Assembly (NCBI GenBank): GCA_903932505.1
Contig: CAIZGN010000056.1
Location: forward strand, 1-63,172
Length of the DNA stretch: 63,172 nt
Origin: Candidatus Hydrogenedentota bacterium
Lineage (GTDB): Bacteria; Hydrogenedentota; Hydrogenedentia; Hydrogenedentales; CAIZGN01
Direction of reading: 5' to 3'
The first letter of the stretch is position 1; each line of letters begins with the position of its first letter. Shown piece after piece: positions 14,460 through 34,131 of the stretch. The position numbers and the translations under genes are program-made. The notes under the pieces were generated by a model that made no database searches, was not told the DNA's origin, and saw only the letters and a program-made list of their open reading frames with translations.

Positions 14460-14855
14460 TTGGCGCTCGCAGTACGAAAAATAACGGTGGAACAGGATGA
14501 TATTTTCCTGATTCACACCCGGCGCATTGCCGACTTGGCCGCCAGCAAAAAGGCAGTCAATCTCGTCGCGGTTGATGTGCGGGGCTTGACCCTCATCGCG
14601 GATAGTTTTGTGATGTGCTCGGCGAACAGCGAACCCCAGCTCAAGGCCATTTTCAACACAGTGCACGATGGCATGAAGGAGGCGGGCCTGCGCCCGCTGC
14701 GCACCGAAGGCTCCTTTCAGGGTGGCTGGATGCTGATCGATTTTGGTTCGATTCTATTCCACGTCTTCCGTCAGACCGCGCGTGAGTTCTACGATCTGGA
14801 CGGATTGTGGGCGGATGCCAAGCCGATTCCTTTGGAACTGGATCTCGACACATAG
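14460..14855 (+). CDS. rsfS: ribosome silencing factor RsfS (iojap-like)
   Basis: 131 aa. KKAVNLVAVDVRGLTLIADSFVMCSANSEPQLKAI...GWMLIDFGSILFHVFRQTAREFYDLDGLW matches the RsfS/iojap family. Confidence 0.85.
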   Translation: MALAVRKITVEQDDIFLIHTRRIADLAASKKAVNLVAVDVRGLTLIADSFVMCSANSEPQLKAIFNTVHDGMKEAGLRPLRTEGSFQGGWMLIDFGSILFHVFRQTAREFYDLDGLWADAKPIPLELDLDT

Positions 14856-14866
14856 GGGTGTCTCTC

Positions 14867-15709
14867 ATGTCCCAGGATACACTGACTCCCGATCGTCCGA
14901 CCCTGTATCACTACAAACTCGACCAAATCCTCGGTGAAGGAGGTACGGGCCGGGTTTATCGCGGCATCGACACCATCAAGGGCGATGTGGCGGCCGTCAA
15001 GCTGTTCCACGAGAATTTTTTCCGCAACGCCCTGCATGTGCGCGATCTCGCGAAGTCTATCAAGCGCTCCAACAAGCTTTCCCACCCCAATGTGGTGGGG
15101 ATTTTCGAGTTCATCGACGGAAAAGACGGCCGCTGTATGAGCATGGAGTATGTGGACGGCCCTAATCTGAAGTGGTATATCCTGAATCGGCCATGGAACA
15201 TTCAGGAACGGCTTAACATCACCATTTCGATCTGTTCCGGTTTGCAGTATCTGCACGACAATGGATTTATGCACCACGATTTCAAGCCGTCGAACGTGTT
15301 GTTCACGCGGCGCGGCGTTCCCAAGGTCGCGGACTTTTCCCTGTACGGCAACAGTTACCTGCTGGAGTTGTTTGCGGGGGCGGTCGGAGAACAGATTACG
15401 CCGATGTTTGTCGCCCCGGAGTTCATCCGCAGGGAGAAAGCCACGCCGTCCGCCGACCAGTATTCGCTGGGGATCACCATGTACATGATGTTTGCCGACC
15501 GGGTTCCCTTTCCCGTCGACAGTATTCAGCGCCTCTACCAATGCCACCTGCACTACCTTCCTGATCATCCGAGCCAGGCAAATCCCAAATGCCCACGTGC
15601 CCTGGGCGATGTCATCATGAAGATGATTGCCAAGAAGACCTCGGATCGGTTTCGGGATTGCGACGAGATTCGCGCCATCCTGACCACGATGAATCAGAGC
15701 CGGATTTAA
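14867..15709 (+). CDS. stand-alone Ser/Thr protein kinase domain protein
   Basis: ATG at 14867, 11 nt after rsfS. Hanks-type motifs: LGEGGTGRVYRG (P-loop), AAVKLF (VAIK-like), HHDFKPSNVLF (catalytic loop), VADFS (DFG variant), FVAPEF (APE), DQYSLG. About 280 aa with no extra domains. Confidence 0.8.
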   Translation: MSQDTLTPDRPTLYHYKLDQILGEGGTGRVYRGIDTIKGDVAAVKLFHENFFRNALHVRDLAKSIKRSNKLSHPNVVGIFEFIDGKDGRCMSMEYVDGPNLKWYILNRPWNIQERLNITISICSGLQYLHDNGFMHHDFKPSNVLFTRRGVPKVADFSLYGNSYLLELFAGAVGEQITPMFVAPEFIRREKATPSADQYSLGITMYMMFADRVPFPVDSIQRLYQCHLHYLPDHPSQANPKCPRALGDVIMKMIAKKTSDRFRDCDEIRAILTTMNQSRI

Positions 15710-15728
15710 GGCCGCGCCCCAAGAATCG

Positions 15729-15757
15729 TTGACATCCCGACTGAATTCCAGTACATT
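15729..15757 (+). promoter_or_regulatory. possible sigma-70-type promoter upstream of the HEPN-SNF2 gene
   Basis: TTGACA (15729-15734), a 17-nt spacer, then TACATT (15752-15757), about 77 nt upstream of ATG 15834. Pattern match only. Confidence 0.3.
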
Positions 15758-15833
15758 GTGCGGAGTGCTGTAATAGACCTTGAGACGGGAAGATCAATGC
15801 CGTTCCATAGGGGAGCGGTCAGCGGGGAAGGCC

Positions 15834-18800
15834 ATGGAACTGGAAACTGGAACGAGGAAAGCGCAGGAATTGGTTGCGCCGCTACTAGGGGGAGTCACCT
15901 CTCATCTGGCCCGCTTTCTTAACCATGTCCTTCCGGCCATCGGGGACGATTGGTGGAAGAAGCTGGTCGTGGATCGTCTTTCGGTCAATCAGCAGCAGCG
16001 CCTGGCGCATCAGCCGGGCCCCTCACTAACAAGCCTCGATCTGGCCGCCTTACTGCGGGTTCTCGACCAGAACTGGTTTGAAATTACATCAAAGAATCAT
16101 CTTTCCGCCGAGGCCCGCCATTATGTGAAGGAGATGCAAACCATCCGCAATCGATGGGCGCATGCGGGCACGGATGGAGTTCCCGGCGAGGACGTTTACC
16201 GCGATCTGGATACACTTCAGCGTTTCGCTGCCGCAATTGGCGCGGACGAAGCGTTTCTTGAAGAGATACGCTTCGCAAAAAAGTCCATGCTGATTAGGGA
16301 ATCGCCCATGAGCATCCAAGTGAAGGAAGAGGCACCCCAAGATCCAGCCCCAAGGCTGGAGGGTGGCGCGGAATTCGCTCCAGGTCAGATGGTCATGTTG
16401 AAATCCAATCCCGCGATCCAGGGTGCCGTAATCGAAGTCCTTTTCTCCTCGCAAGAGAACCGCTTCAAGGTTTTCATGGGTGGGGGAATCCAGATCTACT
16501 ACGCTTCCCAACTTCAAGGGATTGTTCCGGCGGAGGAGAGGCAACCGGTAACTTGCGAACAATTTCATGCCCGCCTCACGGCGCTGCAAATTCTACATCC
16601 CGGCCTTTCCACGCTCTATTCGCTAAATACCGCCCGTGTCGATTTCATTCCCTATCAATTCCGGCCTGTGCTCAAGTTTATCCGTTCGGATCGCCCACGC
16701 CTGCTGATCGCCGATGGAGTCGGCGTGGGTAAGACCATCGAGGCAGGCCTTATCCTTCGAGAACTGCAGGCAAGGCGCGATCTTCGCTCCGTGCTCATTA
16801 TCTGCCCACGCCCCTTAATCACCGAGTCCAAGTGGCTCAATGAGATGAAGCGGTTCGAGGAACACTTTACCCATCTTGATGGCCCTGGTCTGAGGCATTG
16901 CATCAATGAAATGGATCTCGACGGGCAATGGCCGGAGCAGCACTCACGGGTAATCGTTCCATATTCCCTGTTTGATGAAACCCTTCTATATGGCCCTGAC
17001 CCGGGCAACAAACGGAAGCGCAAGAAGGGACTCCTAGCCCTGGATCCCCCTCCGCGCTTCGACTTGGTTATCGTGGATGAGGCGCACCACATTAGAAACC
17101 CGGAGACCTTCAGTCACAAGGCGGTTCGATTCTTTTGCGATCACGCCGAGGCCGTGCTCTTTCTCACGGCCACCCCCATACAACTTGGAGCAGACGACCT
17201 TTTTGTGCTGTTGAACACGCTGCGCCCGGATCTGATCATCGACAAGGCCAGCTTTGAGCACATGGCGGAGCCCAACCCATTCATCAATCAGGCTGCGGCG
17301 GCTGCCCGAGCCCAAGGGGATGGATGGGCGGGCCGAACATCGTCATACCTGAGCGAGGCCGCATCAACCGCATGGGGACAGGCAATTCTGAAACCAAACC
17401 CCGAATTCACCGATATGCAACGGCAGCTTTCAGAGGATGGTGGTATTTCTCCAGAGGAACGCATCAGGCTGATTGCCGATATTGAATCCTTACACACTTT
17501 TGCGGGAATCATCAACCGCACCCGGCGTCGGGACATTGGGGACTTCACCCTCCGTAAATCCCAAACCGTAACGGTGGAATTCACGAGTGCGCAAAGAGAA
17601 CTCCACGATGCGATCTTACAAGTTCAAGCGAAGATATTTCTGGCGATACATGGCGACAAAAACGTCAAATTCATGATGACCACCATCCGGCGGCAAGCCG
17701 CCAGTTGTTTGTTCGGACTTGCGCCATTTCTCCAAGAGATTCTAAGTCGGCACTTGGACGAACTGGCCTGGGAAGAGGCGGATGATTCAGCAACTGTCGC
17801 CGATGTGAAAGCTATCGACAAGATAGAAAGGGAGATTCAAGCCATTCTAAAAATGGCGGAAAACCTCGATCCTTTCGATCCGAAATTAGAAGCATTGCGG
17901 AAAATCATCCGGAACAAACAGAACCTTTCCAACAACAAGATCATGCTTTTCAGCAGCTTCCACCACACGCTTTACTATTTGCGTGACCAATTAGGGACCG
18001 GTGAATTCCGCATCGGCCTCATCCACGGCAAGACTCCGGACGAAGATCGCATGGATCTTAGGAGTCGCTTTGAAAGCCCGCGCGAAGAGGAAGACGCGCT
18101 TGATGTCCTGCTTTTCTCCGAAATCGGTTGTGAAGGCCTCGATTATCAATTTTGCGACTGCATCGTGAATTATGATCTGCCGTGGAACCCCATGCGGATC
18201 GAACAACGCATCGGTCGCATTGACCGAAACGGGCAGAGAAGCGAATCCGTGGCCATCTACAACCTGGTCACGCCTGGAACCGTCGACGCCAGCATTTACG
18301 AGCGGTGCCTGCTTCGTATCGGAATATTCGAGCATGCCATGGGCGATGCCGAGGAAATCCTCGGCAAAATCACCCGGGATATTCGCAATATCGCGGAAGA
18401 TCTCCAGCTTTCAGAAGAAGAACGCAACCACAAGCTCCAGCAATTGGCAGACAATGAAATTCGTTTAATCCAGGAACAGAACGCGCTGGAGGAAAAGCAA
18501 GTCGAACTGTTTGGCATTCGGGTACCACAGGATCATATGAAAAACGAAATTGAGGATGCGTCCAGTTTCTGGCTCTCGCCCACGGCCATCCAGCAACTCA
18601 TAAGCTTCTATCTCAAAGAAACCTGCGAAAAAGATCAAGACTTCATCCTCGGCGAGAAACCGCTCAAGACGCTTCGGCTTTCACAGGAAGCGCGGTCTGC
18701 CTTGCGCAATGATCTCCAGAAACTGTCCCGGCTGAAAAGCACCGTATATGGCGAATGGGACAGATGGCTGAAAGGCGGCGATCCCAATCTCTCCATCACC

Positions 18801-19433
18801 TTTGACGCCCAATGCGCGGCCCAGAATCCGAAGGCCGCCTTCATCACACCCATTCATCCTCTCGCCAAACAGGCGGCTGTGGCGTTGGGCCAGGAAAGGC
18901 CCGCAGCGGCTGCCTTCCAAGTGACTTCCGATGAGGCCCCTCCCGGCACCTACGAGTTTGCCATCTATCAGTGGCAGTTTCAGGGTATCCGTCAAGACGT
19001 GGTTCTGCAACCTGTGGTCAATTCACCGGAGATCACGCCTTTGCTCACTGACCTCCTGGCCAAGGCCGTCGAGACCGGTAGTTCCCGCAACTTTGATGTA
19101 CCTGCGACCGCATCGAGTGCGCTCGATGCTCAACACCACGTACTCTGGACTCAGGCACGTGAAGACCACGTCGAAAAAACGCGCCGGATGGCCCAGTACC
19201 GCAAGGAAAGCCTTAACACCAGCCACGCTGCAAGAGTGGCGTTGCTAAGAGAGCAAGCCGAACAATCCAAAGACGAAAAGATAAGGATAATGCGCCAAGC
19301 GCAAATGGCTTCTGCGGAAGCTGATTACGCTCGGCGCACGCAGGAATTGGATATAGCAGCAGAGCGGGCCGACATTATCGCGGAACCCGTGGCGTATGGG
19401 GTGCTTCAGATTCTTGAGGAGAATGCCGAATGA
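15834..19433 (+). CDS. Swt1-like HEPN domain fused to an SNF2-family (SF2) helicase with a long C-terminal extension
   Basis: Start at ATG 15834 (MELETG, GGGGAAGG upstream); the ORF opens at TTG 15780. HEPN-type Rx4H motif QTIRNRWAHAG (R codon at 16146), preceded by LLRVLDQNWF. Small beta-rich segment GQMVMLKSNPAIQGAVIEVLF...RFKVFMGGGIQIYYASQL, resembling the RapA N-terminal Tudor/SH3-like fold. SNF2 motifs: LLIADGVGVGKTIEAG (I, about 16722), DLVIVDEAHHIRN (II, about 17076), FLTATPIQ (III), LLFSEIGCEGLDYQFCDCIVNYDLPWNP (V), QRIGRIDRNGQ (VI, about 18204). The C-terminal extension is about 400 aa and ends in a coiled coil. Confidence 0.85.
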   Translation: MELETGTRKAQELVAPLLGGVTSHLARFLNHVLPAIGDDWWKKLVVDRLSVNQQQRLAHQPGPSLTSLDLAALLRVLDQNWFEITSKNHLSAEARHYVKEMQTIRNRWAHAGTDGVPGEDVYRDLDTLQRFAAAIGADEAFLEEIRFAKKSMLIRESPMSIQVKEEAPQDPAPRLEGGAEFAPGQMVMLKSNPAIQGAVIEVLFSSQENRFKVFMGGGIQIYYASQLQGIVPAEERQPVTCEQFHARLTALQILHPGLSTLYSLNTARVDFIPYQFRPVLKFIRSDRPRLLIADGVGVGKTIEAGLILRELQARRDLRSVLIICPRPLITESKWLNEMKRFEEHFTHLDGPGLRHCINEMDLDGQWPEQHSRVIVPYSLFDETLLYGPDPGNKRKRKKGLLALDPPPRFDLVIVDEAHHIRNPETFSHKAVRFFCDHAEAVLFLTATPIQLGADDLFVLLNTLRPDLIIDKASFEHMAEPNPFINQAAAAARAQGDGWAGRTSSYLSEAASTAWGQAILKPNPEFTDMQRQLSEDGGISPEERIRLIADIESLHTFAGIINRTRRRDIGDFTLRKSQTVTVEFTSAQRELHDAILQVQAKIFLAIHGDKNVKFMMTTIRRQAASCLFGLAPFLQEILSRHLDELAWEEADDSATVADVKAIDKIEREIQAILKMAENLDPFDPKLEALRKIIRNKQNLSNNKIMLFSSFHHTLYYLRDQLGTGEFRIGLIHGKTPDEDRMDLRSRFESPREEEDALDVLLFSEIGCEGLDYQFCDCIVNYDLPWNPMRIEQRIGRIDRNGQRSESVAIYNLVTPGTVDASIYERCLLRIGIFEHAMGDAEEILGKITRDIRNIAEDLQLSEEERNHKLQQLADNEIRLIQEQNALEEKQVELFGIRVPQDHMKNEIEDASSFWLSPTAIQQLISFYLKETCEKDQDFILGEKPLKTLRLSQEARSALRNDLQKLSRLKSTVYGEWDRWLKGGDPNLSITFDAQCAAQNPKAAFITPIHPLAKQAAVALGQERPAAAAFQVTSDEAPPGTYEFAIYQWQFQGIRQDVVLQPVVNSPEITPLLTDLLAKAVETGSSRNFDVPATASSALDAQHHVLWTQAREDHVEKTRRMAQYRKESLNTSHAARVALLREQAEQSKDEKIRIMRQAQMASAEADYARRTQELDIAAERADIIAEPVAYGVLQILEENAE

Positions 19434-22400
19434 TACAAGAGTTGATGGAAAAGCGCAAGAGATGGGTCGAGGCAAACCGTGAGAATGGATTTGAAACGGG
19501 TCTGAAACACCTGCTCACGGAGCTCTACCCGGACAACGCCCACTTCATCTACGAACTCCTGCAGAACGCCGAAGACGCACATGCTCAAGAAGTGCGGTTC
19601 ATCTTGGAGGAGAACCGCGTCGAATTTGAGCATAATGGAGAAAGGCTCTTCTCTTTCGAAGACGTCGACGCTATTACCAGCATCGGATTCAGCACCAAAC
19701 GCGACGACCCCACCAACATCGGGAAATTTGGCGTCGGCTTCAAGGCGGTTTTTGCCTATACCGAAACACCGGGAATCGAATCGGGAGAGTTTCATTTCCA
19801 AGTCCATGACATGGTAGTGCCGGAACCGATCGGCACTGCGCGGATCAAGCCGGGTGACAAGCAAACGCGATTCATTCTGCCTTTTAACAACCCGAAGAAG
19901 TCAGCGGATCGCGCGCGAAACGAGATCGAAACGCTTCTAAGAAAACTCGACGCGGCCACGCTGCTCTTCCTCACGCGTATCCGCAAGATCGAATATCTGC
20001 TTCCTGATACGTCTCTTGGCTACATCGAACGAATAGGGCATGGCGACCACCGATTCGAGATTCGCGTACAACAGCCTGATGAACTCGCCCCTTCGTCTAC
20101 TTGGTTTCTCAAGTTCGACAAAGAGGTTCAGGTGCAAGACGACGAGGCTGAGAATGAAGGCCAACAGCTGAAAACTTGCCGAATCGTCTTGGCCTTCGGA
20201 TTGTCGCCCGTCGCAACAAGAGCGGGCATTAAGGAAAAGAAAGACGTCGGTGCCATACCCGAATGGGAACTTGTGCCACTCGAGCGGGGGCGCGTCTGTA
20301 TCTATTTCCCGGCGGACAAGGAGACCTCCAATCTCCGCTTCCATCTACACGCACCATTTGCCTCCACTGTGGCGCGGGATAGTGTGCGCGATTGCCCGGG
20401 AAACAACGCACTACGCGACCACTTGGCCGAACTACTGGCCGAATCTATGCACGCCATTCGGGACCAAGGCCTGCTGACCGTGCGCACGTTGGCGCTGCTA
20501 CCCAACAACAAGGACAATCTGCCGACGCTCTATCAGCCACTTCTGGCCCGGCTGGTTAGGGAATTCCAGGTTCAGGATCTTGTCCCGATGAAACGCGACG
20601 GACATGCTTCGGCACGAAGCATATTTCGCGGGTCCGCCAAGCTGCAGGTGGTCATTGACGACAAGGATTTGGCCCATCTACTTAACAAACCGAAAGGGGC
20701 TCCGCTTTGGGCCGCAAATCCCCCACAACGGCATCAATGTGAGGACAATTTCCTCGCGGGCTTAGGTATCGAGCAATTAGAGTTGGAAAAACTGGTTCTC
20801 CATTTCTCATCTATCCCGGAAACGATGGAAGCATGGCTCAAGTCCAAGAGTATGCCATGGCACCGGAGTTTCTATGCGCTGCTCATCACGACCTTTTCGG
20901 AGAACGCCAGCTCTGAGTACCAAGCAACTCTCCGAAACCTTCCGCTTGTTCGGCTCGCTTCTGGAAGATATCAAGTCGGCCGCCAATCTTGTTTTCCTGT
21001 TGACCAGATGGATGTAAAGCATAAGCTGCAGCCGGTTGAGCGAGCAACGTACTCAGTTGACAATCAGGACGTTGATCAAGCAAAGAAATTTCTCAAGGCC
21101 ATAGGTGTCCGAGAATATAGTTTGACCGATGTGGTTGTCGATTTGATCATTCCAGAATATGAAGAACATGTCCCGCGAAAACGACATTTCAAGCACATCG
21201 CTACGATTCTCAAGGCAGTGGGGGAGGCGCCCAAACTAGAAAAGGAAAGCCTGAAGAAGCATCTCGGTGATACGGCATTCATTCTTGTGGAAAAGCCCGG
21301 CAAATCTAGTCACGCCTACGCAAAACCTGCAGAACTCTATTGGAGCTCCGAAAAGGACACCTCCCTTTGGAGGGAAAATCATGGAGTCAAATTCATTGAT
21401 GACGAGTATAACAAATCAAATCAGGAGTTTTTCCAAGAGCTCGGCGTCCAAGAGTTCGATATCGTTGAGAATGTCATCACGGCTATTCTTCCCTCGTATA
21501 GGGCCCCTGTTCCGCTAAAGCAGCACCGGCACGACATAGGGAAAATCTGTCAGGCGCTTGACACTGACTCTCAGGAGAAAAAGGCGAAACTACAGGATGC
21601 CCTATGCAAATCCTCGTTCGTTTTGACACAAACAGAATCGTCGACCGGTCCGCTCTACAAGAAACCGACTGAAGTGTCTCTGTTTGACAAGGAATGGTTC
21701 TCCTTCTTCCAAGATGGAGCCCCCCCACACTTCCTCAGTGAGGAATACGACGGAAAGATGGTTGAGAACTTTAAGGACCTCGGAGTTACTGCCCTCAATC
21801 CTATTGAGGCCGCGAAGACGATAATTTTCCGCATGGCGCATCTTTCATTGGAATCAGAGATTGACCGAAAACGCCATCTATCGAACATGCGGTTTCTCGC
21901 GGAAACTTGTTGGCCCCGCATCAAGAAGCAGACCGAAAAGGCCAGCCGAGAAAACTGGGTAAAGGAGTATAAAACACGGGCGTTCATCATCACCGAATCT
22001 GCTGATTCAAGACCGATGGCCTATAGAAGACCGGGCGACCTCTATTTCCACAGTGATGGCCTAGGGGCATACTTTACCGGAAATGAAGAAGGAAAGTTCG
22101 TCTGGGGGGAATATGGGGCCGCGATTCAGGAGTTCTTGGAGGCCTTTGGGGTGTCCCATGACGCGCGAGTCGAGAAAAAGAAAGAAGATCAGGCTCACAA
22201 TATCAGCATCGAAGCCAGTTGGGGCCATCATAAGCGCGGATTAGAGGGGTATGATCCCGAAATTAAGGTCGACGGCTTGCATGATGCGCTAATACTGCCT
22301 CCTTCTATGGAGAAGAGTCGGTATATCTGGAAGAAAATCGCCCTTCCTCATCAGCAGTGTATCACGGGATATATTGAATCCTCGTCGCGGCAGACCTTTG

Positions 22401-23197
22401 AGGGGAGCGAGAAGACGAAGGCGGAATCTGAAGGATTTGGCCGGTTCCTCATTGGAAGCCGGTGGTTGCCCAACAAAGAAGGTGAGTTCGTTTCGCCTAC
22501 AGAAGTAACACTCGACGTTTTGCCGGAGGATTTTCAAGGAGACCAAGTGTTGGCCAGTCAATTGGGCATGAAGCAGAATTACATTGGTGAACTCGCAAAA
22601 AAATGCGGTATTTCACCGGATCGTCTTGAGTTCACAAAAGACAACCCAGAAGAAATTGACCGGCTAATTGCTGAAAAAGAATCAAGGAAAAACAAACCGG
22701 AATTCCCTACTCAGGCGATAACGGATTCAGACCGCCGACGGGAAAAAGTTGCCGAGCAGCATGCTGATGCTCCTGCTAAGGAGTACGAGAAACGCGAGCG
22801 AAGCGTCCGGACTAGCGAGCCCGAAATTGATCGCAGAACAAGCCTTCGAAGCATGTATACAAACCCTGATGGGATAATGGTGTGTCAGGTCTGCGAGCAT
22901 GAAATGCCGTTCAAGAAACGCAATGGCGAGTATTACTTTGAAACGGTGGAGGCTCTTTCTAAAGACTATTTCACCAAAGAGCATGAGGCGCAGTTCTTGG
23001 CATTGTGCCCAGTGTGCGCGGCCAAGTATAAGGAGTTTGTAAAGTCCGATAACCATGCTATGGATGAATTCGTGAGCACATTGAAAGTTTCAGAGACGCC
23101 CGAGGTTCCGCTGAAACTGGGCGATTGGGATACTAGCCTCCGGTTTGTTGAAACGCATTTTCTTGACATCAAGACTATCCTCGGAGTCCTGGAATAA
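19430..23197 (+). CDS. sacsin-like GHKL (Bergerat-fold) ATPase with internal repeats and C-terminal zinc ribbon
   Basis: 1255 aa. The start overlaps the upstream stop (ATGA at 19430-19433). GHKL N-box FIYELLQNAEDA (19553-19579), then EFEHNGERLF and G-box NIGKFGVGFKAVF (19721-19744), the pattern seen in sacsin/MORC-type ATPases. Four to five repeats of about 113 aa each begin xF(L/F)xxLG(V/I) (aa 439-915). C-terminal CQVC...(44 aa)...CPVC (22883-23017). Confidence 0.8.
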   Translation: MIQELMEKRKRWVEANRENGFETGLKHLLTELYPDNAHFIYELLQNAEDAHAQEVRFILEENRVEFEHNGERLFSFEDVDAITSIGFSTKRDDPTNIGKFGVGFKAVFAYTETPGIESGEFHFQVHDMVVPEPIGTARIKPGDKQTRFILPFNNPKKSADRARNEIETLLRKLDAATLLFLTRIRKIEYLLPDTSLGYIERIGHGDHRFEIRVQQPDELAPSSTWFLKFDKEVQVQDDEAENEGQQLKTCRIVLAFGLSPVATRAGIKEKKDVGAIPEWELVPLERGRVCIYFPADKETSNLRFHLHAPFASTVARDSVRDCPGNNALRDHLAELLAESMHAIRDQGLLTVRTLALLPNNKDNLPTLYQPLLARLVREFQVQDLVPMKRDGHASARSIFRGSAKLQVVIDDKDLAHLLNKPKGAPLWAANPPQRHQCEDNFLAGLGIEQLELEKLVLHFSSIPETMEAWLKSKSMPWHRSFYALLITTFSENASSEYQATLRNLPLVRLASGRYQVGRQSCFPVDQMDVKHKLQPVERATYSVDNQDVDQAKKFLKAIGVREYSLTDVVVDLIIPEYEEHVPRKRHFKHIATILKAVGEAPKLEKESLKKHLGDTAFILVEKPGKSSHAYAKPAELYWSSEKDTSLWRENHGVKFIDDEYNKSNQEFFQELGVQEFDIVENVITAILPSYRAPVPLKQHRHDIGKICQALDTDSQEKKAKLQDALCKSSFVLTQTESSTGPLYKKPTEVSLFDKEWFSFFQDGAPPHFLSEEYDGKMVENFKDLGVTALNPIEAAKTIIFRMAHLSLESEIDRKRHLSNMRFLAETCWPRIKKQTEKASRENWVKEYKTRAFIITESADSRPMAYRRPGDLYFHSDGLGAYFTGNEEGKFVWGEYGAAIQEFLEAFGVSHDARVEKKKEDQAHNISIEASWGHHKRGLEGYDPEIKVDGLHDALILPPSMEKSRYIWKKIALPHQQCITGYIESSSRQTFEGSEKTKAESEGFGRFLIGSRWLPNKEGEFVSPTEVTLDVLPEDFQGDQVLASQLGMKQNYIGELAKKCGISPDRLEFTKDNPEEIDRLIAEKESRKNKPEFPTQAITDSDRRREKVAEQHADAPAKEYEKRERSVRTSEPEIDRRTSLRSMYTNPDGIMVCQVCEHEMPFKKRNGEYYFETVEALSKDYFTKEHEAQFLALCPVCAAKYKEFVKSDNHAMDEFVSTLKVSETPEVPLKLGDWDTSLRFVETHFLDIKTILGVLE

Positions 23198-23271
23198 CAA
23201 AGAGCGGGGACCTATTTACTGGAGACGGTGGAAGCCGAGTTCAATACGGAGATAGAGAAAGCCACCCAGCC

Positions 23272-23614
23272 ATGACCCAGCTGCTGTCACTTCCGGATAA
23301 TCCAGGATTTCTCGCCGTACTGAACGATCGCATCAGGCATGCCCGCCCCTCCGCTGTCCGCGCCGTCAATCATGAATTGGTTCTGCTTTACCGTGATATC
23401 GGGTACGGCATTGTGGAAAACCAACAGCCTGCAGGGTGGTTCGATGCGGCCGTGGAACACCTCCCCGCCGGTCTTCGCGCGGCAATTCTGCCCGGCGTAT
23501 TCCTGTGCCCAATTTCTTGAAGAGGCTGTTCAAGAATTGAAGAAAAGTGGGCAGCAGTCTCTTCCGCCTGGCGCGACCAACAAGCTCATTTGCCGGATGA
23601 AGGCGGCGGGATGA
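23272..23614 (+). pseudogene. frameshifted, truncated remnant of a DUF1016/YhcG-family (PD-(D/E)XK nuclease) gene; only the N-terminal domain is left
   Basis: Frame 1: LNDRIRHARPSAVRAVNHELVLLYRDIGYGIVENQQPAGW..VEHLPAGLRAAILPGV. This matches the N-terminal helical domain of YhcG/DUF1016 proteins as I remember them (..RIR.A...A.RAVN.EL..LYW.IG..I.E.Q...GWG..VV..LS..L..EFPG..GFS). The frame stops at 23520. Similarity seems to continue in another frame (..QFLEEAVQ..GQQSLPPGATNKLI, compare QQ.LPWGHN..L) up to 23614. No nuclease domain follows. Confidence 0.5.
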
Positions 23615-23719
23615 ACTTGCGACAATCCTGTGACACCGATTGTGTCATGCTAACGGGATGGCTTGGCCTACCCTGCACGGAAACTCTTTGAGAGAAAAGC
23701 CCCTAAGCTGGTACAATTC

Positions 23720-24247
23720 ATGGAGACGCGCTTCAGCGCGACAATGAGGTTCGTTATGCCCCTGAGTCCACAACAAATGCAGGCGATTTATATGGCGACC
23801 ACGGTGATTCGTCGCCCCCGGTTTGGCATCGTCAGCGGTTATCACGAGTTGCCCTATGTGTGCATCGGGGCCTCTTTCGAGCCTAGCAAGGGTGCTACGC
23901 GGGTGAAGGGGCGGGTGCATGTCTCGCCCCGCTTTGTGATTCGCCCCGCGCATTGCGAACCGAGCTACGAGGAAATCTTTGGCGCGGAAAATGTGGACAA
24001 GGCGATCGCGGGGCGCGTTTTTGGCTATCTGGGCTTTCGCAACAAGCCGGTGGAGTGCTCTTCCGAATATCTCGAACTGAAGCATCTGGACCAAACCGTG
24101 GATCAGGTACTCGGAGAGAGCCTCAGCGAACTGGATCGCATGGAAGACATCACTACAGGCGTGTTCATCACGCCCGACAGCCGTTATTACCCTCTTTCCG
24201 TGGAGCGATTTGTGTCGTCCATTCTGGAAGATGAGTTTTCAGTTTAG
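23720..24247 (+). CDS. hypothetical protein
   Basis: The ORF opens at TTG 23663. ATG 23720 (METRFS) is the first ATG, so the start is uncertain. Coding-like composition and no motif I recognise. Confidence 0.45.
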   Translation: METRFSATMRFVMPLSPQQMQAIYMATTVIRRPRFGIVSGYHELPYVCIGASFEPSKGATRVKGRVHVSPRFVIRPAHCEPSYEEIFGAENVDKAIAGRVFGYLGFRNKPVECSSEYLELKHLDQTVDQVLGESLSELDRMEDITTGVFITPDSRYYPLSVERFVSSILEDEFSV

Positions 24248-24331
24248 TTCAAGTCGGCCCGTCCTTTTCGCAGACGAGGCGTCCCGCCTCTTGAATGCGG
24301 CGGAATGCCACTACATTTACCGAGGTACATC

Positions 24332-24601
24332 ATGAAAAGCGCCTATGAATTAGCGATGGAACGGCTTGAGCGGGAAAGTGGCCCGCAGCGGAAACTCACC
24401 GAGGCGCAGCGCGCTGAGATTGCCGAAATCAACAAGCGTTTTGACGCGCGCATCGCTGAAGTCAAAATGAGCATGGAGCAACGCTGCGCCACAGCAACCA
24501 CCTTGGAAGAATTTCAGGGGATGCAAGCAGACATGGCTTCCCAGATTCAGTCGCTTGAAGAGAAGCGGAACCGGGAGAAGGAGGCCATCTGGAATTCCTG
24601 A
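24332..24601 (+). CDS. small helical/coiled-coil hypothetical protein
   Basis: ATG 24332 (MKSAYELAMERLERE) with GAGG upstream. 89 aa, charged heptad-like sequence. Confidence 0.5.
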   Translation: MKSAYELAMERLERESGPQRKLTEAQRAEIAEINKRFDARIAEVKMSMEQRCATATTLEEFQGMQADMASQIQSLEEKRNREKEAIWNS

Positions 24602-24638
24602 CCGGTGTTTACCGTAGGGGGTTTTGGGGGTGTTGACC

Positions 24639-26018
24639 ATGTTCAAGGTTCGACGCCGTTGGTGGTACGCGTCTGCGGTCGCTTTGGCAGGCCTGATGCT
24701 GGTCGGCCTTCTCGCGGTTTGGGATATGCGCATGCGGCAGGCCCCTCACCTGGGTTTCGCCCCCTCAGAGGCGCAGTGGCTCGCTTTCGCACCAGACTTC
24801 CCCGCGTTCAGCGCGGCACTGCAGACTTCCGACCCAGTTCAGCGCGTTCTCTCGAAAATCCCGGCGGGCGAGACCTCGATGGCCTCTGTGGCCGGATGGA
24901 CTCGTTTCTGGATTGGGGGTCCGATCCTGTTTTCGGAAGGTGCGGGAAGCTGGGGTTGTTGCCTCCGGCCGGGTGCCGCCTTGCGGATCACGTGCTGGCT
25001 CAAGGAAAAGACGGGCCGCCCTGCGCTTTTTGGGCGGCTGCACTATTGCTGGCGTGACGGCTTCTTGCTGGCCTCGGAAAGCCAGGGGTATCTGGCCCTT
25101 GCGATGAATGCACCCCGCGTGGACGGGCTGACCCCGCCGCAGTCGACAAACGCCCTCAAATTTCAGATGCATTGGCAAGACCGAGCCTTGGCGTCAAATC
25201 CAGCGCAAAAACTGGAGGCCACCCTCTGGGCCGGGCCCGAACTGCACATCGAGGGGCGCGCCATGCTGGACGCCGCCTTTGCGGGGGGCGGCACCCTGAC
25301 TCTTCCGGACGCTTGGAGTACCCCGCCGCTTCTTATTCTTGCCGGTGGCACCCATGATGATCTTGACGCAATGCTCCGTTGGTTTTCGAAAACACTACCC
25401 GAAGACGGGACGCTTGCCTTGGCTTTTCCGGGTGCGGCCGATACGGTGGGGCGACTGTGGCAGACCCTCGCCACGGTGTGTCCTGCGGAAACCGCGATCG
25501 TATGCCGGGGTATTGATTTTTCTGGGGCTATTCCAGTGCCGGAGGTTGGCTTGGTGGCCCTGCGCCCGACAGGCGGCACCATGTCCGAGGCGCTGAGTCC
25601 TTTCGTGTCCACCCCGGAGGCGATACGCTACGCTTGGGGTCGGCGGGAAGGCTGGCAGTTACCCCTGCTTGGTTCAGAAGGCACCCTCTGCATGACCACC
25701 GTGCAGCCCTACTGGCTCTTTGCCGCACAGGAACGAACCATGGCCGCGCTGCTGGACGGATTGCAGGGAGGGCGTCCAGCGGACGCCAACCTCGCGTTGC
25801 GTCTGGACTGGAGGCAGTTGAGTGGCGTGTTGTCAGAGGTGCTGCTTCGAGCGGCCCGATGGGAACTGTTGCCCGAGTGCAATGAGGCCGATGTATGTCG
25901 GGACTGGCTTCCACTTTGCGAGGCGACTGGTGACTTGGGGCAAGCGGCCATCGATGCCCAGGCGTGGGGTGGTTGGCTGCAGTTCAAGGGGCAATTGTCC
26001 CGCAGGAGTCAGCCATGA
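24639..26018 (+). CDS. hypothetical membrane-anchored protein
   Basis: Start MFKVRRRWWYASAVALAGLMLVGLLAVW (a single N-terminal TM). The stop overlaps the start of the next gene (ATGA at 26015-26018). Confidence 0.55.
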   Translation: MFKVRRRWWYASAVALAGLMLVGLLAVWDMRMRQAPHLGFAPSEAQWLAFAPDFPAFSAALQTSDPVQRVLSKIPAGETSMASVAGWTRFWIGGPILFSEGAGSWGCCLRPGAALRITCWLKEKTGRPALFGRLHYCWRDGFLLASESQGYLALAMNAPRVDGLTPPQSTNALKFQMHWQDRALASNPAQKLEATLWAGPELHIEGRAMLDAAFAGGGTLTLPDAWSTPPLLILAGGTHDDLDAMLRWFSKTLPEDGTLALAFPGAADTVGRLWQTLATVCPAETAIVCRGIDFSGAIPVPEVGLVALRPTGGTMSEALSPFVSTPEAIRYAWGRREGWQLPLLGSEGTLCMTTVQPYWLFAAQERTMAALLDGLQGGRPADANLALRLDWRQLSGVLSEVLLRAARWELLPECNEADVCRDWLPLCEATGDLGQAAIDAQAWGGWLQFKGQLSRRSQP

Positions 26019-30138: not shown

Positions 30139-33100
30139 CTATTCCGCCGGGCAAATCACCCGGAAGCCCACGTTGTAGACGTGCTGCCAAGGCTCGTAGG
30201 CTTGGCGGCTCGAGGCGGTGGCGTGTTTGGGTCGGTCGAACCATGAACCGCCGCGCACGGATTTCTTCTCCCGTCCATCGGCGTTGCTGGCTTCCTGATA
30301 GGGATAGGGGCGGTAGGCACTGCGGGTCCACTCGGCGGCATTGCCGAGCATGTCACACAAGCCCCACACATTGGGCTGATACTTGCCCACCGTCGTCATG
30401 ATCTTCTCGCCATCGCTGAAACGGGTATCCTTGATCAGGAAATCTTGGAACGGCGAGGGATTTTTGATGGGTTGCGGGTCGATGCCATCCACCGCCAGCA
30501 GCTTGAGGGAGAGGTCGGCCAAATTGGCGAAGGGGGAGAAGTCCGCATCGGCTTCGCCAAAGTAGAACGGCGAGGCCGCGCCCGCACGACAGGCCCATTC
30601 CCATTGGGTCTCGGAAGGAAGAGAGAATCCGCGCCCGGTCTTCGTGGCGAGCCACTGACAGAAGGCGGAGGCCTCGTCCCAACTGATTCGGATGGCGGGC
30701 ATTTCAGGATCCTGCACGGAGTAGCCGGGTCGCGTATGATCCTTGTGGTGCTGGTCAATGACGCCGTTGTCGTGTTTGGGGTCAAAGGTCTGATACTGGC
30801 GATTGGTGATTTCGGTCACACCCATCCAGAACGGCTTTTCGATTCTGACCTGAGTCTGCGGGAATTCATCATTTGCGCCAAAACGGCTGCCCATGATGTA
30901 TTCGCCCGCCGGGATGAGGCTCAGCCGCAAGGTCACGCCGTTGCCAAGATCGAGGGTATCCTCCGTCTTAGCGCCGGCCGCTTTCTGGTTTTCGGCAGCC
31001 TTTTTCGGATTGATCGGCCAGTCCGGGCAATCGAGGCTTTTCTTCGGACGCTCGGGCTCGGGCTGAGGCTGCACGAAGGCCACCGGGGCGGCGGGGGGAG
31101 GAAGTTGCTCCGGATCTTCGGTGCTAGCGGCATAGCAGGCCCTCATGGCGAGGCGACGCTTGTCGAAGTCCTTCGGAATGCTGCCATAGGCCTCAAGCCA
31201 CGAACCCTTGTCCGGCACATTGAGGTCGATCCAGGTGTAGAGGCGATCCCAGGCCTCATTATCGAGCTGGACGCCGTGGTGGCCTTTTTCAAGCATCTGG
31301 ATGAGCTCACTGGTGCTGGCGTGGAACTCAAGCGGCGTCAGGATATGGTAATCGCTCTCGGGGCCCGGACGTCGCACGTAGGGATGCAGTTCCAGATAGG
31401 ACGTGCTGAACCCGCCGGGGGTCTTGTCATCCCTGAGTCGCAGGTCAGGCTTGGGCCCGCCATCGGCTGAGGGTGATCCATCGTGACAGCCGATGCAGAA
31501 CTTGTCGAGCACCGGCTGCACCTCGCGCTTGAAACTGAAACCGCGCGCGGGTCCGTACCAGGGTTGGATGTCCTTGGGAGCATTGCGCGCTGCCACATTG
31601 GCACCCAGCGCGGGCGACATGTTCTGCCGTTCGTGACAGCCCGCGCAACTGACCATTTCACCGGGCATGCCGACGAACCAGCTGCGCATGAGTTGCAGCG
31701 CGCGACCCTGCGCGTCGAGTGGTTGGATGGCCACAGGGGTGTTCGCGGGAATTTTGAAGGAGGCAGAGCCATCCTCGTCCACCGGGACAGTTCCGAGAAT
31801 CCGGCGCACGTCCCACGAGCCTTCCACGCCCACATTGATGTGCCCGCCGATGTTTGGATAGGCGTAGTGGAAGCCGTAAACCCGAAGCGATTTCACCGTG
31901 CCTCTTGGGACATCCCGCAGTCCGGGACCGGCGTAGACGTCCGACACATAAACCGTCGCGTCCTTGGATTCGAGGTTGACCTTGTCTGGAATCGTCGGCG
32001 GTCTTTGGCTCTTGCGCAGGGGGAGGGGTTCAAAGAGCGCGTAGCCCGGTTCCTCGGCCAGCAACTGGCGATTGCCGAAGACATCCACGAGATAGACGCC
32101 CCAGGCCGCATCCGCCGTGGGCTTGCACGAAACCAGCAGATAGTTTTTGTTCAGCGGGTAAGGATGCAGAAACTTGGGCCAGACATTGTCGACCAGCGTG
32201 TCCATGATGACCGGCTCGACTTTCTTGCCGTAACCGGGAATGCGTTGCACCACCCCATCGCCCTCGGTGCGACCCTTCGCGGGGTCGAGCAGAATCAATT
32301 CACCCATGCGCGGCACGCCGTGGTGTCCGGAAATAATGGCGGCCACCATGCTGGGTTCGCCGGGCACCGGCCGTGCATAGAAGGTCGAGTTGGGCCAGTA
32401 CGAGTTGCTGCCGTAGTACTCCGCCTGGTTGGTGCCATCGGGATTCATGCTGAAGAGGAGACGGGAGAAGTAGTGCGGGGTGTCGGAGTACTCCCAGCGG
32501 GTGTACATGATGCGCCCGTTTTGCAGCAAGGTCGGGCACCAATCGTGATCCTGATCAAAACAGAGTTGCCGGATGGCTGAACCATCGGCATTCATCAAGC
32601 ACAGATTGGCGACCGTGTTGGAACCGCCCACGCAGGGCACCCCCTGAAAGCACCGGGTGGATCCAAAGACAATGCGCTCGTCGGGCAGGTAACAAGCGTC
32701 ATAGTTGTCCACATCGGGTTCGGTGCCGGGGGTCACTTGGCGCAGGCCGTTGCCATCGGCGCCAATCTCGAAGATCTGCCAGCGGTCATTCGTGCCCGGC
32801 ATGGAGAAGAGCATCTTCCCCGCATCGAAATGCAGATCCACATCGCCCACGAACTCGCCGTTCTGCGGGCGGAAAAACGTTTTCGGAACGGCCCCTTTTT
32901 CCTTGTAGGCCAACTGATCGATCTCGTTGTCATAGCCTTTCTGGCCCATGGCGCAGTTACCCTGCCAGTTCTGGGGCAGTCCGAGATTACCCGCGCCGCG
33001 TTTCACCAGAAGAAGCGTATCGAAGTCGAGCAGAGGGTTGGCGAGAAGTGCTTCGCGTTGCAGCTCGAGCAGTTGCTGCAGCTCCTGAACCCCGGCGTCT

Positions 33101-34131
33101 TCCCCCCGGCCCAGCGCGCTTTCGATCTCTGGAATGCGGCCCTTGCAGGCATCCACGCGGGCGAGAAAATCCTTGCCCTTGGGGTAGGTGGCCGAAAAGG
33201 CGGTATCGAGATCCTCAATGGCGAGGCGCAGCGCCACGAAATCGACCTGGCGCAATTTCGCGAGGTTTTCCCGGAAAACGCTCGCGCGCACATACAGGTC
33301 CAACCATTGCGGATCATCGGAAGGCACACGCCCGTCCTTGAGCGCGCTTGCGGCCTGTTGGATGGGCTGGGCGGCTGTTCCCGTTTCACTCAGCGTACGC
33401 GCGAACATGTCCATTTGCGCGTCGGTGTTGTCCGGGCGGAGGAACCAGGCCAAACCCGCACTACCCGGCGCATCGCGCTTGATCCACGACGATTCTCGAG
33501 GAAAATCCTTTTCAATTTTCGGCCAGTAGAGGTTGGAAGGATCGGCGGGCGACGCAAAATAGAACGAATACGCGCCCTGCGCATGAAAGACCTTCACCAA
33601 GAGTGTGTTTTCACCGGCGTGCAAAGCCAGTTCGATGTTCTCCGGATTGGTGGCTAGGGCTTCTTTGCGAAAAACCTCCTGTCCGTTCAGCCACAGTTGC
33701 AGACCCTGACTGTCGCCACCGAGGGCAATCGGCAGGCTCAGGTCCTTGGCGGCCGTGAGGGTGCGGTACAGATAGATGACGGAATTGTCCGGCCCCGAAA
33801 GCCCGCTCGTGGCATAGTCGAGGTATTCCAATCGGGCGTTCCACACCCGCTCGTCCTTGGGATTCTTCGCGTTGATGTCCACGCCCTGTTCAGGGAAAGC
33901 CGCCTCGGCCAAGGACGAAACTCGGATGGGATTGGTGGTGTACCACACCCCGAGAGTCACGGGCCATTGGGCCTGGGTTTGCTGAGCGGCCGCACGGCAA
34001 GTCCGCATGGTTTCCTGCCAGGACGCGCCTTTGGCGTATTCACGCGGCAGTGCTTCTCCGGCGCGGGCCGGGATGCAGAGGCTCAGGCCAACGCAGGCCA
34101 ACAACAAGGACGCCAACAATGATTTCCGCAT
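30139..34131 (-). CDS. giant secreted multidomain protein: N-terminal lectin/PA14-like region, beta-propeller-like middle, two CxxCH motifs, C-terminal FGE-sulfatase (SUMF1/PvdO-type) domain
   Basis: 1330 aa. Signal peptide MRKSLLASLLLACVGLSLCIPARA. SCAGCHERQN (31633-31647) and FCIGCHDGSP (31483-31497). The C-terminal ~260 aa (LIPAGEYIMGS...ISWDEASAFCQWL...RLPSETQWEWACRAG...GNAAEWT...VRGGSWFD...GFRVICP) match the FGE-sulfatase fold. Confidence 0.8.
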   Translation of the reverse strand: MRKSLLASLLLACVGLSLCIPARAGEALPREYAKGASWQETMRTCRAAAQQTQAQWPVTLGVWYTTNPIRVSSLAEAAFPEQGVDINAKNPKDERVWNARLEYLDYATSGLSGPDNSVIYLYRTLTAAKDLSLPIALGGDSQGLQLWLNGQEVFRKEALATNPENIELALHAGENTLLVKVFHAQGAYSFYFASPADPSNLYWPKIEKDFPRESSWIKRDAPGSAGLAWFLRPDNTDAQMDMFARTLSETGTAAQPIQQAASALKDGRVPSDDPQWLDLYVRASVFRENLAKLRQVDFVALRLAIEDLDTAFSATYPKGKDFLARVDACKGRIPEIESALGRGEDAGVQELQQLLELQREALLANPLLDFDTLLLVKRGAGNLGLPQNWQGNCAMGQKGYDNEIDQLAYKEKGAVPKTFFRPQNGEFVGDVDLHFDAGKMLFSMPGTNDRWQIFEIGADGNGLRQVTPGTEPDVDNYDACYLPDERIVFGSTRCFQGVPCVGGSNTVANLCLMNADGSAIRQLCFDQDHDWCPTLLQNGRIMYTRWEYSDTPHYFSRLLFSMNPDGTNQAEYYGSNSYWPNSTFYARPVPGEPSMVAAIISGHHGVPRMGELILLDPAKGRTEGDGVVQRIPGYGKKVEPVIMDTLVDNVWPKFLHPYPLNKNYLLVSCKPTADAAWGVYLVDVFGNRQLLAEEPGYALFEPLPLRKSQRPPTIPDKVNLESKDATVYVSDVYAGPGLRDVPRGTVKSLRVYGFHYAYPNIGGHINVGVEGSWDVRRILGTVPVDEDGSASFKIPANTPVAIQPLDAQGRALQLMRSWFVGMPGEMVSCAGCHERQNMSPALGANVAARNAPKDIQPWYGPARGFSFKREVQPVLDKFCIGCHDGSPSADGGPKPDLRLRDDKTPGGFSTSYLELHPYVRRPGPESDYHILTPLEFHASTSELIQMLEKGHHGVQLDNEAWDRLYTWIDLNVPDKGSWLEAYGSIPKDFDKRRLAMRACYAASTEDPEQLPPPAAPVAFVQPQPEPERPKKSLDCPDWPINPKKAAENQKAAGAKTEDTLDLGNGVTLRLSLIPAGEYIMGSRFGANDEFPQTQVRIEKPFWMGVTEITNRQYQTFDPKHDNGVIDQHHKDHTRPGYSVQDPEMPAIRISWDEASAFCQWLATKTGRGFSLPSETQWEWACRAGAASPFYFGEADADFSPFANLADLSLKLLAVDGIDPQPIKNPSPFQDFLIKDTRFSDGEKIMTTVGKYQPNVWGLCDMLGNAAEWTRSAYRPYPYQEASNADGREKKSVRGGSWFDRPKHATASSRQAYEPWQHVYNVGFRVICPAE

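Follow-up and report, generated by a model that had tools for sequence, protein, structure and literature searches.

Why would a motor of the SNF2 family carry, at its N-terminus, a domain predicted to cut RNA? The question is raised by a gene in a stretch of 63,172 nucleotides from a Candidatus Hydrogenedentota bacterium (the window: contig CAIZGN010000056.1 of assembly GCA_903932505.1, positions 1 to 63,172 of the forward strand). The original prediction placed a ribonuclease (RNase) module of the HEPN type at 15897..16274, on the N-terminus of a DNA-translocase-type motor, and suggested that translocation or sensing licenses RNA cleavage in the manner of abortive infection. The analysis presented here finds that the HEPN-SNF2 gene is translationally coupled to a second gene, which encodes a Tiamat-like GHKL ATPase. 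The best overall explanation, to which a probability of about 60% is assigned, is that the HEPN domain is an optional, predicted RNase co-effector on a horizontally mobile defense pair of two ATPases.

The frame is open on the + strand from 15780 to 19433, and the public protein record (P0003, 1199 residues) begins at the ATG at 15834, which is the point from which the N-termini of relatives align. The N-terminal region matches the Pfam family PF18731 (HEPN_Swt1) with an E-value of 1.3e-19 and a score of 71 bits, where the curated cut-off is 27.5, far beyond chance for HEPN. As the match covers nucleotides 15903-16241 in the protein scan and 15900-16241 in the genome-level scan, the span first proposed, whose quoted peptides lie in the + frame, encloses the domain. 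In addition to the score above the curated threshold, a further mark of HEPN_Swt1 membership was found, an R-x4-6-H motif with a polar residue following the arginine. No second copy of PF18731 was found in the source genome by the genome-level scan.

Conservation of the motif was examined at three levels. A search for the fusion family with residues 1-180 as the query, restricted to proteins of 659-2099 residues, returned 733 database clusters at E ≤ 1e-3. The best 120 of these 733 clusters, the window protein among them, all contain PF18731, SNF2 and Helicase_C, and most have 1175-1210 residues. R-x4-H is kept in all 120; it takes the form R-[NQ]-x3-H in 119 and reads RDRWAH in the other. In a full-length alignment (A1) of 35 of the 120 proteins, with 64% identity to the window protein (also the mean identity of the fusion protein to its 34 full-length relatives), R105 and H110 are invariant. 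The third alignment comprised 54 N-terminal domains, from the window, from 28 HEPN-bearing loci (of 39 with derived start coordinates) and from 25 short representatives. R105, N106, W108, A109 and H110 are each conserved in at least 90% of them, and one representative has leucine in place of the arginine. When the HEPN domain was searched with HMMER against 1.84 billion representatives, 1013 proteins were recovered at E ≤ 1e-3, 491 of them at E ≤ 1e-10. A profile of the 54 domains gave only chance-level matches against the PDB sequences.

The structure of residues 1-177 was modeled with AlphaFold2 on the 54-row alignment, with a mean predicted local distance difference test score (pLDDT) of 92.1 and a predicted template modeling score (pTM) of 0.82. 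The model is entirely helical. It was compared to 48,161 chains with VIA-align, a structure search independent of Foldseek, and the two best matches were HEPN domains: the AbiF dimer bound to noncoding RNA (8vz6_B; Z 8.7, root-mean-square deviation 3.3 over 146 aligned residues) and the C-terminal domain of yeast Swt1 (4pqz_A; Z 8.2, root-mean-square deviation 3.4, 124 of 136 residues aligned). Further matches were Cas13 (Z 7.2), Csm6 (Z 6.4), HEPN toxins (Z 6.3-5.6) and AbiA (Z 5.6). The predicted fold is an all-α bundle that resembles solved HEPN domains. AbiF is a free-standing HEPN protein, whereas the domain considered here is fused to SNF2. A search for a noncoding RNA antitoxin in the style of AbiF returned no Rfam match over 14500-24700 at E ≤ 1, and the 250 nucleotides 5' of 40 HEPN-bearing genes revealed no conserved RNA element, being alike only among close kin.

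The Swt1-type identity, originally proposed from the motif, was borne out by the profile search, in which the region falls within the Swt1-like HEPN family. Two outcomes had been named as contrary to it, assignment to a helical family other than HEPN and lack of conservation of the R/H pair among homologues; neither was obtained, because profile and structure both match HEPN and the pair is conserved.

The remainder of the protein is assigned from its sequence motifs to the SNF2 ATPases. Both lobes are matched by Pfam downstream of HEPN (Table 1), in agreement with the fusion as it was first described. GVGKT (G297-T301) and DEAH (D415-H418) are invariant in the 35 full-length sequences, as are Q791, R792, G794, D797 and R798 of the Helicase_C lobe. 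The non-HEPN part reads as a DrmD/RapA-like SNF2 ATPase with intact ATP-binding motifs. The best match in PADLOC is DrmD (E 8e-113), which covers the whole SNF2 part; HEPN lies outside the DrmD model. The score with the NCBIfam model of DrmD (NF038317) is 290.9 bits, below the equivalog cut-off of 610. DISARM, the system to which DrmD belongs, shares the SNF2 part, but here DrmA, DrmB, DrmC and the methylase are not conserved nearby: no DrmA, DrmB, DrmC or methyltransferase is found among the window neighbors, no DrmA/B/C among 122 flanking open reading frames (ORFs), and no conserved cluster of DrmA, DrmB and methyltransferase or DrmC in 80 related loci.

Among solved structures, the motor is most closely related to RapA (E 1.1e-32), which associates with RNA polymerase. 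This relationship, together with the covalent tethering of HEPN to a translocase rather than its release as a free toxin, would favor a targeted, non-suicidal nuclease: the motor would track along the DNA of the invader or along a transcription complex, and nascent or local invader transcripts would be cut in cis, with no general shut-off of RNA. Such a mode of action is considered improbable, as the score of 180.5 bits with the NCBIfam model of RapA (NF003426) is far under the equivalog cut-off of 576, and the similarity is limited to the ATPase core and one weak C-terminal stretch (2.5 bits). A likeness of the linker between HEPN and the ATPase to the N-terminal domain of RapA was considered. 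This candidate was dropped when the linker profile (alignment A4), searched against the PDB sequences, yielded only chance-level immunoglobulin matches and no solved relative.

The start of the partner gene overlaps the stop of the SNF2 gene by 4 nucleotides. The partner protein matches TmtA (Tiamat) in PADLOC with E 9.1e-69, SACS in Pfam with E 1.5e-18 and P_loop_sacsin in NCBIfam with 89.6 bits (cut-off 50); these profiles assign to it a sacsin-type GHKL N-terminus and a likeness to TmtA. Of 58 full-length partners, 56 share the conserved stretch formed by the last 255 residues, with or without HEPN on the SNF2 gene. The model of the C-terminal domain is closest in VIA-align to TagI (Z 6.1) and EcoKMcrA (Z 6.0), followed by the HNH domains of Cas9, Cap5 and PtuB, and in Foldseek it matches McrA (E 0.018, probability 0.95). 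Two CxxC pairs (CxxC...CxxC) are invariant in this C-terminus; the canonical HNH histidines, judged by eye, seem to be replaced. The partner as modeled has neither the PD-(D/E)xK C-terminus nor the single-gene action that characterize Tiamat. With 1255 residues, the window partner is longer than the median of 1028 residues in related loci; the extra part lies at about residues 700-1000 and is partly shared with relatives.

Table 1. Positions in the window of the HEPN-SNF2 gene, its partner gene and their predicted parts
Feature	Positions	Strand	Extent or motif	Basis
HEPN-SNF2 fusion gene	15834..19433	+	1199 residues	ORF and database record of equal length
Swt1-like HEPN domain	15900..16241	+	residues ~23-136, helical bundle to ~156	Pfam PF18731
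Predicted HEPN catalytic motif R-x4-H	16146..16163	+	R105-N-R-W-A-H110	sequence read
Conserved linker region, HEPN to ATPase	16359..16700	+		alignment A4, 72% column identity
SNF2 N-lobe	16692..17285	+	Walker A GVGKT and motif II DEAH	Pfam SNF2-rel_dom, E 1.9e-17
SNF2 C-lobe (Helicase_C)	17883..18233	+		Pfam Helicase_C, E 2.6e-19
Tiamat/sacsin-like GHKL ATPase partner gene	19430..23197	+	1255 residues	
HNH-like zinc-ribbon C-terminal domain of partner	22814..23188	+		AlphaFold2, pLDDT 85.8
Promoter-like site upstream of the operon	15729..15757	+	TTGACA, 17 nucleotides, TACATT	consensus scan, 10/12 positions

Related loci were collected from species-representative genomes: 561 related stretches were obtained, 80 loci were kept, and their ORFs were called and clustered. 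All 80 contain the SNF2 gene, and 74 have a Tiamat-like gene directly downstream of it. The partner is missed at a contig edge in three loci (L047, L049, L055), and three (L019, L035, L044) are truly without it. HEPN is present in 42 of the 80 loci and absent from 38. Three of the latter (L017, L037, L055) are cut by the end of the contig, which leaves 35 assessable loci without HEPN. Most HEPN-less proteins begin 1-25 residues ahead of the conserved linker. HEPN is an optional part of this SNF2 family. Full-length orthologues occur in 2 of 30 genomes of the same order, with 53-54% identity, and both have HEPN and the partner.

Could the domain be devoid of catalytic activity, serving instead as a sensor of RNA or nucleotides, or as a dimerization module, that controls the motor? 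It is dispensable in the 35 assessable relatives, and for eukaryotic Swt1 and human sacsin, whose HEPN domains have been proposed to play such a role, passages of the 2013 HEPN census (PMC3710099) regard the domain as probably non-catalytic. In the same passages, however, the inactive HEPN domains are those that lost the motif, and the bacterial Swt1-like versions are called active; here all 120 relatives retain the R/H pair, and N106, W108 and A109 each reach 90% or above. A purely regulatory HEPN is accordingly held to be unlikely. The original prediction was right about the HEPN domain itself; it had left out the Tiamat-like partner, the optional nature of HEPN and the supposed inactivity of the eukaryotic Swt1 domain.

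Other arrangements were seen among the related loci. In L056 (7164-8000), L060, L073 and L080, an N-terminal module of 260-280 residues replaces HEPN on the SNF2 protein. It has no Pfam match and resembles the N-terminus of the PADLOC candidate PDC-M23B (E 2.9e-57); an atlas look-up gave a weak lead to DUF6707 (0.92, low recognition) and no usable family. In 11 loci (for example L051:3935-4582), four of which bear HEPN, the SNF2 and Tiamat-like genes are separated by a gene of about 215 codons. This gene has no match in Pfam, PADLOC or PHROG, and the atlas gives unnamed clusters only. Directly 3' of the pair, a RecD-like SF1 helicase of 1180-1250 residues is encoded in L013 (14660-18205), L014, L016, L017, L022 and L048. 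The four full-length copies scanned match PADLOC PDC-S68 with E 0, and the L016 fragment with E 2.1e-66; the helicase could be a third component or belong to a neighboring system. Two overlapping ORFs of L062 (7977-8660 and 8470-11568) encode HEPN and the SNF2 core separately, which suggests a frameshift or a split, and L007 (318-3665) contains the second half of HEPN only.

Some of the HEPN-less operons include another gene with a possible RNase function. A MazF/PemK-like gene (Pfam E 5.9e-11) directly follows the partner in nine loci, for example L020:14856-15197, and overlaps the stop of the partner by 8 nucleotides in seven of the nine. As its immediate upstream neighbor is the Tiamat-like gene, it is not preceded by an antitoxin gene. 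Judged from its family match, it would give the operon an RNase toxin of its own. In five loci, a PIN-like gene with a weak match (E 3e-4) sits between the two core genes. Altogether, a MazF-like or PIN-like gene is found in 13 of the 38 HEPN-less loci and in none of the 42 loci with HEPN. A FastTree tree was built from 76 SNF2 cores, leaving out L017, L019, L023, L032 and L055 (less than 950 residues). The 12 PIN- or MazF-like loci in the tree all group in a single clade of 29 rows that lacks HEPN and has a support of 99; the thirteenth is L032. The HEPN status changes five to six times on the tree, one change (L037) being an artefact of a contig edge, and the presence of PIN or MazF differs in at most one of five independent contrasts. 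The mutual exclusion of HEPN and PIN/MazF was dropped as independent evidence, as a single clade makes it the pattern of a single lineage.

These genes bring up a broader possibility, that the SNF2/Tiamat-like pair serves generally to restrain RNase toxins, with HEPN in cis and, in sister lineages, the MazF- or PIN-like proteins in trans. In this reading, the latter have no antitoxin gene of their own and are coupled in translation to the partner. The core would act as the antitoxin and would release the RNase upon encountering foreign DNA. This idea is put forward as a doubtful one. Were it true, the bacterial association of HEPN with a sacsin-type ATPase would correspond in function to the combination in eukaryotic sacsin. 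In sacsin, the GHKL repeats and HEPN are on one chain, whereas here they are linked through one operon; according to passages of PMC3710099, the sacsin domain is C-terminal and belongs to another family (HEPN-T, PF05168). The association of ATPase and HEPN in sacsin and in the bacterial operon is probably convergent.

HEPN of the same subtype also precedes, as an N-terminal domain, modules of the NACHT/WD40, VWA, Sel1, pentapeptide and FGE-sulfatase kinds, and on the basis of these architectures it looks like a mobile effector module. The best representative match to the domain is P0123, a metagenomic protein of 595 residues with two HEPN stretches and an FGE-sulfatase domain. The window itself encodes, at 30139-34131 on the - strand, a protein of 1330 residues with FGE-sulfatase and HZS_alpha domains. 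In the phylum of the window, 17 of 135 genomes have a PF18731 match. The strongest matches, of 110-135 bits, are in ORFs of about 1100 codons, and the two that were checked are both HEPN-DUF499 proteins; five matches of 57-71 bits are in ORFs of about 1200 codons and are of the SNF2 type. Over the catalytic half, the HEPN domains of the two types are 34% identical and have RN-x-WAH in common. As the Pfam score is 71 bits for the window protein and 119-129 for HEPN-DUF499, the HEPN of the SNF2 type is taken as a diverged subfamily.

The genomic setting bears on the defense role. Upstream of the pair are a Ser/Thr kinase gene, gatB, gatA and secA. The fraction of guanine and cytosine (GC) is 0.51-0.54 over 16-24 kb, compared to 0.56-0.63 in the flanks. 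For 39 of the 42 loci with HEPN (L036, L040 and L047 had no flanking ORFs), up to two ORFs to either side of the pair were scanned, and PADLOC matches at E ≤ 1e-15 were found for 39 of the 122 flanking ORFs, in 25 of the 39 loci. They include type I and III restriction enzymes, Septu PtuA/B, ZacA/B, HmaC, AbiD and the candidate PDC-S68. The neighbors differ in almost every locus, and the occurrence of the pair is patchy among relatives. No tRNA genes, which could mark the borders of an island, were found in the window. The sequencing runs listed for this DNA are two runs of DNA from one study, and none of RNA is among them. The setting looks like a defense island, and the defense role is proposed from homology and context; most likely, the two-gene unit defends against phages or other invading DNA. 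It is very unlikely that the pair is instead a housekeeping factor of transcription or repair. The RapA-like ATPase core and the adjoining gatA, gatB and secA are in keeping with such a role, but not the low GC, the restriction of orthologues to 2 of 30 genomes of the order, the variable neighbors that often match defense genes or the match of the partner to Tiamat models.

Three features near the pair are reported for completeness. The Ser/Thr kinase gene (14807-15709, + strand, 125 nucleotides upstream) matches PADLOC mad6 with E 2.4e-56 and, over nearly the full profile, the single-gene defense kinase PD-T4-6 with E 8.2e-55. It was discarded as a third component of the system because none of the 80 related loci contains it. 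It could be either a defense gene in its own right or an ordinary kinase. Just 3' of the operon, an ORF of 82 codons (23272-23520, + strand) matches the N-terminal 60 positions of the PADLOC candidate PDC-S02 (E 6.6e-13), and proteins of about 270-370 residues encoded directly 5' of the SNF2 gene in four related loci match the C-terminal part of PDC-S02. The promoter-like site upstream of the operon is weak evidence, because nine such sites were observed in the region and 6.2 ± 2.2 in shuffles.

Beyond the observed domain identities, conservation of motif and operon, optional HEPN and defense-island setting, a mechanism can be proposed for the predicted RNase co-effector. The two ATPases would form a sensing and translocating core on DNA. 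HEPN would be held inactive until the core engages its target, in a licensing step. It would then cleave RNA, probably after two HEPN domains meet, and the cleavage would stop translation as a backup or abortive response. In the available text of a preprint on Tiamat (bioRxiv 10.64898/2026.09.30.754977), HEPN RNases are described as generally needing two HEPN domains together. For DUF499 and DndF, passages of PMC12839542 and PMC10853773 interpret the HEPN domain at the N-terminus as a suicidal effector held in reserve. By analogy, the abortive-infection-like licensing first suggested fits these published readings of N-terminal HEPN domains on defense ATPases.

Several observations weigh against the proposal. 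The 35 assessable relatives lack HEPN and in most of them no other RNase takes its place, so that an RNase may not be needed for the core to work. The PIN-like match is under the Pfam cut-off (22 bits for 23.6), and the mutual exclusion of HEPN and PIN/MazF is statistically unsupported because there are only five independent contrasts. The PADLOC rate of 39 in 122 is a raw figure, without a background rate. As regards the structure, Z scores of 8.7 and 8.2 are middling values that helical bundles can reach by chance, and non-HEPN helical proteins appear at Z 6-7 in the same list of matches. Foldseek gave no match of the HEPN model in the PDB at E ≤ 0.001; HEPN toxins appear only at ranks 23 and 26 of its list, with E of about 1.5. 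The structural matches nevertheless carry weight, because the two top ones belong to the Abi2/Swt1 group, as defined in the consulted part of the 2013 census (PMC3710099), and agree with the profile match.

How does this pair compare to known systems? A close parallel is the HEPN-DUF499 protein of Hma, or 'type-1 BREX-related' (Ava_2192 type), in which PF18731 is likewise an optional domain at the N-terminus of a large defense NTPase. The HEPN-bearing form is given for 1370 of 2446 taxa in the accessible text of PMC12839542. In that of PMC3710099, an active bacterial Swt1-like HEPN is placed on a DUF499 AAA+ ATPase, and a separate SNF2 helicase of the operon carries a nuclease. The carrier in Hma is thus a STAND/AAA+ DUF499 protein accompanied by an N6-methyltransferase and a separate SNF2-nuclease, whereas in the present pair HEPN sits on the SNF2 protein itself, with a GHKL ATPase as the partner. 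No DUF499 or methyltransferase gene is present in the window operon or among its neighbors, which sets the locus apart from Hma. HmaA, as presented in portions of PMC11232893, is an experimentally supported defense SNF2 motor with a nuclease, but this nuclease is a C-terminal PD-(D/E)xK nickase acting on DNA, instead of an N-terminal predicted RNase. In eukaryotic Swt1, HEPN forms a dyad and is fused to PIN; passages of PMC3710099 take it to be probably inactive.

Canonical Tiamat (TmtA) consists of one gene, whose product bears a PD-(D/E)xK DNA nuclease, whereas the partner described here is paired with an SNF2 gene in 74 of 80 loci. The available text of the Tiamat preprint, dated October 2026 (bioRxiv 10.64898/2026.09.30.754977), describes a type IV-A with an HNH-like C-terminus in place of PD-(D/E)xK, as in the present partner. 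It also places Swi/Snf helicases among the neighbors of Tiamat and describes a type IV-B with a helicase fused to a nuclease domain. That text names HEPN for SACSIN only. The preprint partly anticipates the pairing and may already show the HEPN-SNF2 fusion. No publication was found under the HEPN_Swt1 name or PF18731, and the accessible portions of the literature on SNF2, sacsin, Tiamat and HEPN contained no text on an HEPN-SNF2 fusion. The HEPN call itself is ordinary database knowledge.

If HEPN is active, the fusion would place an RNase on a DNA motor of the SNF2 family, and would join DNA sensing by two ATPases to a response at the level of RNA. It would then define a widespread two-gene defense system, with 733 clusters of the HEPN form and 561 related stretches. 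The variants with HEPN, without HEPN, with MazF and with PIN make up a natural series from which it may be learned what an RNase add-on contributes to the core.

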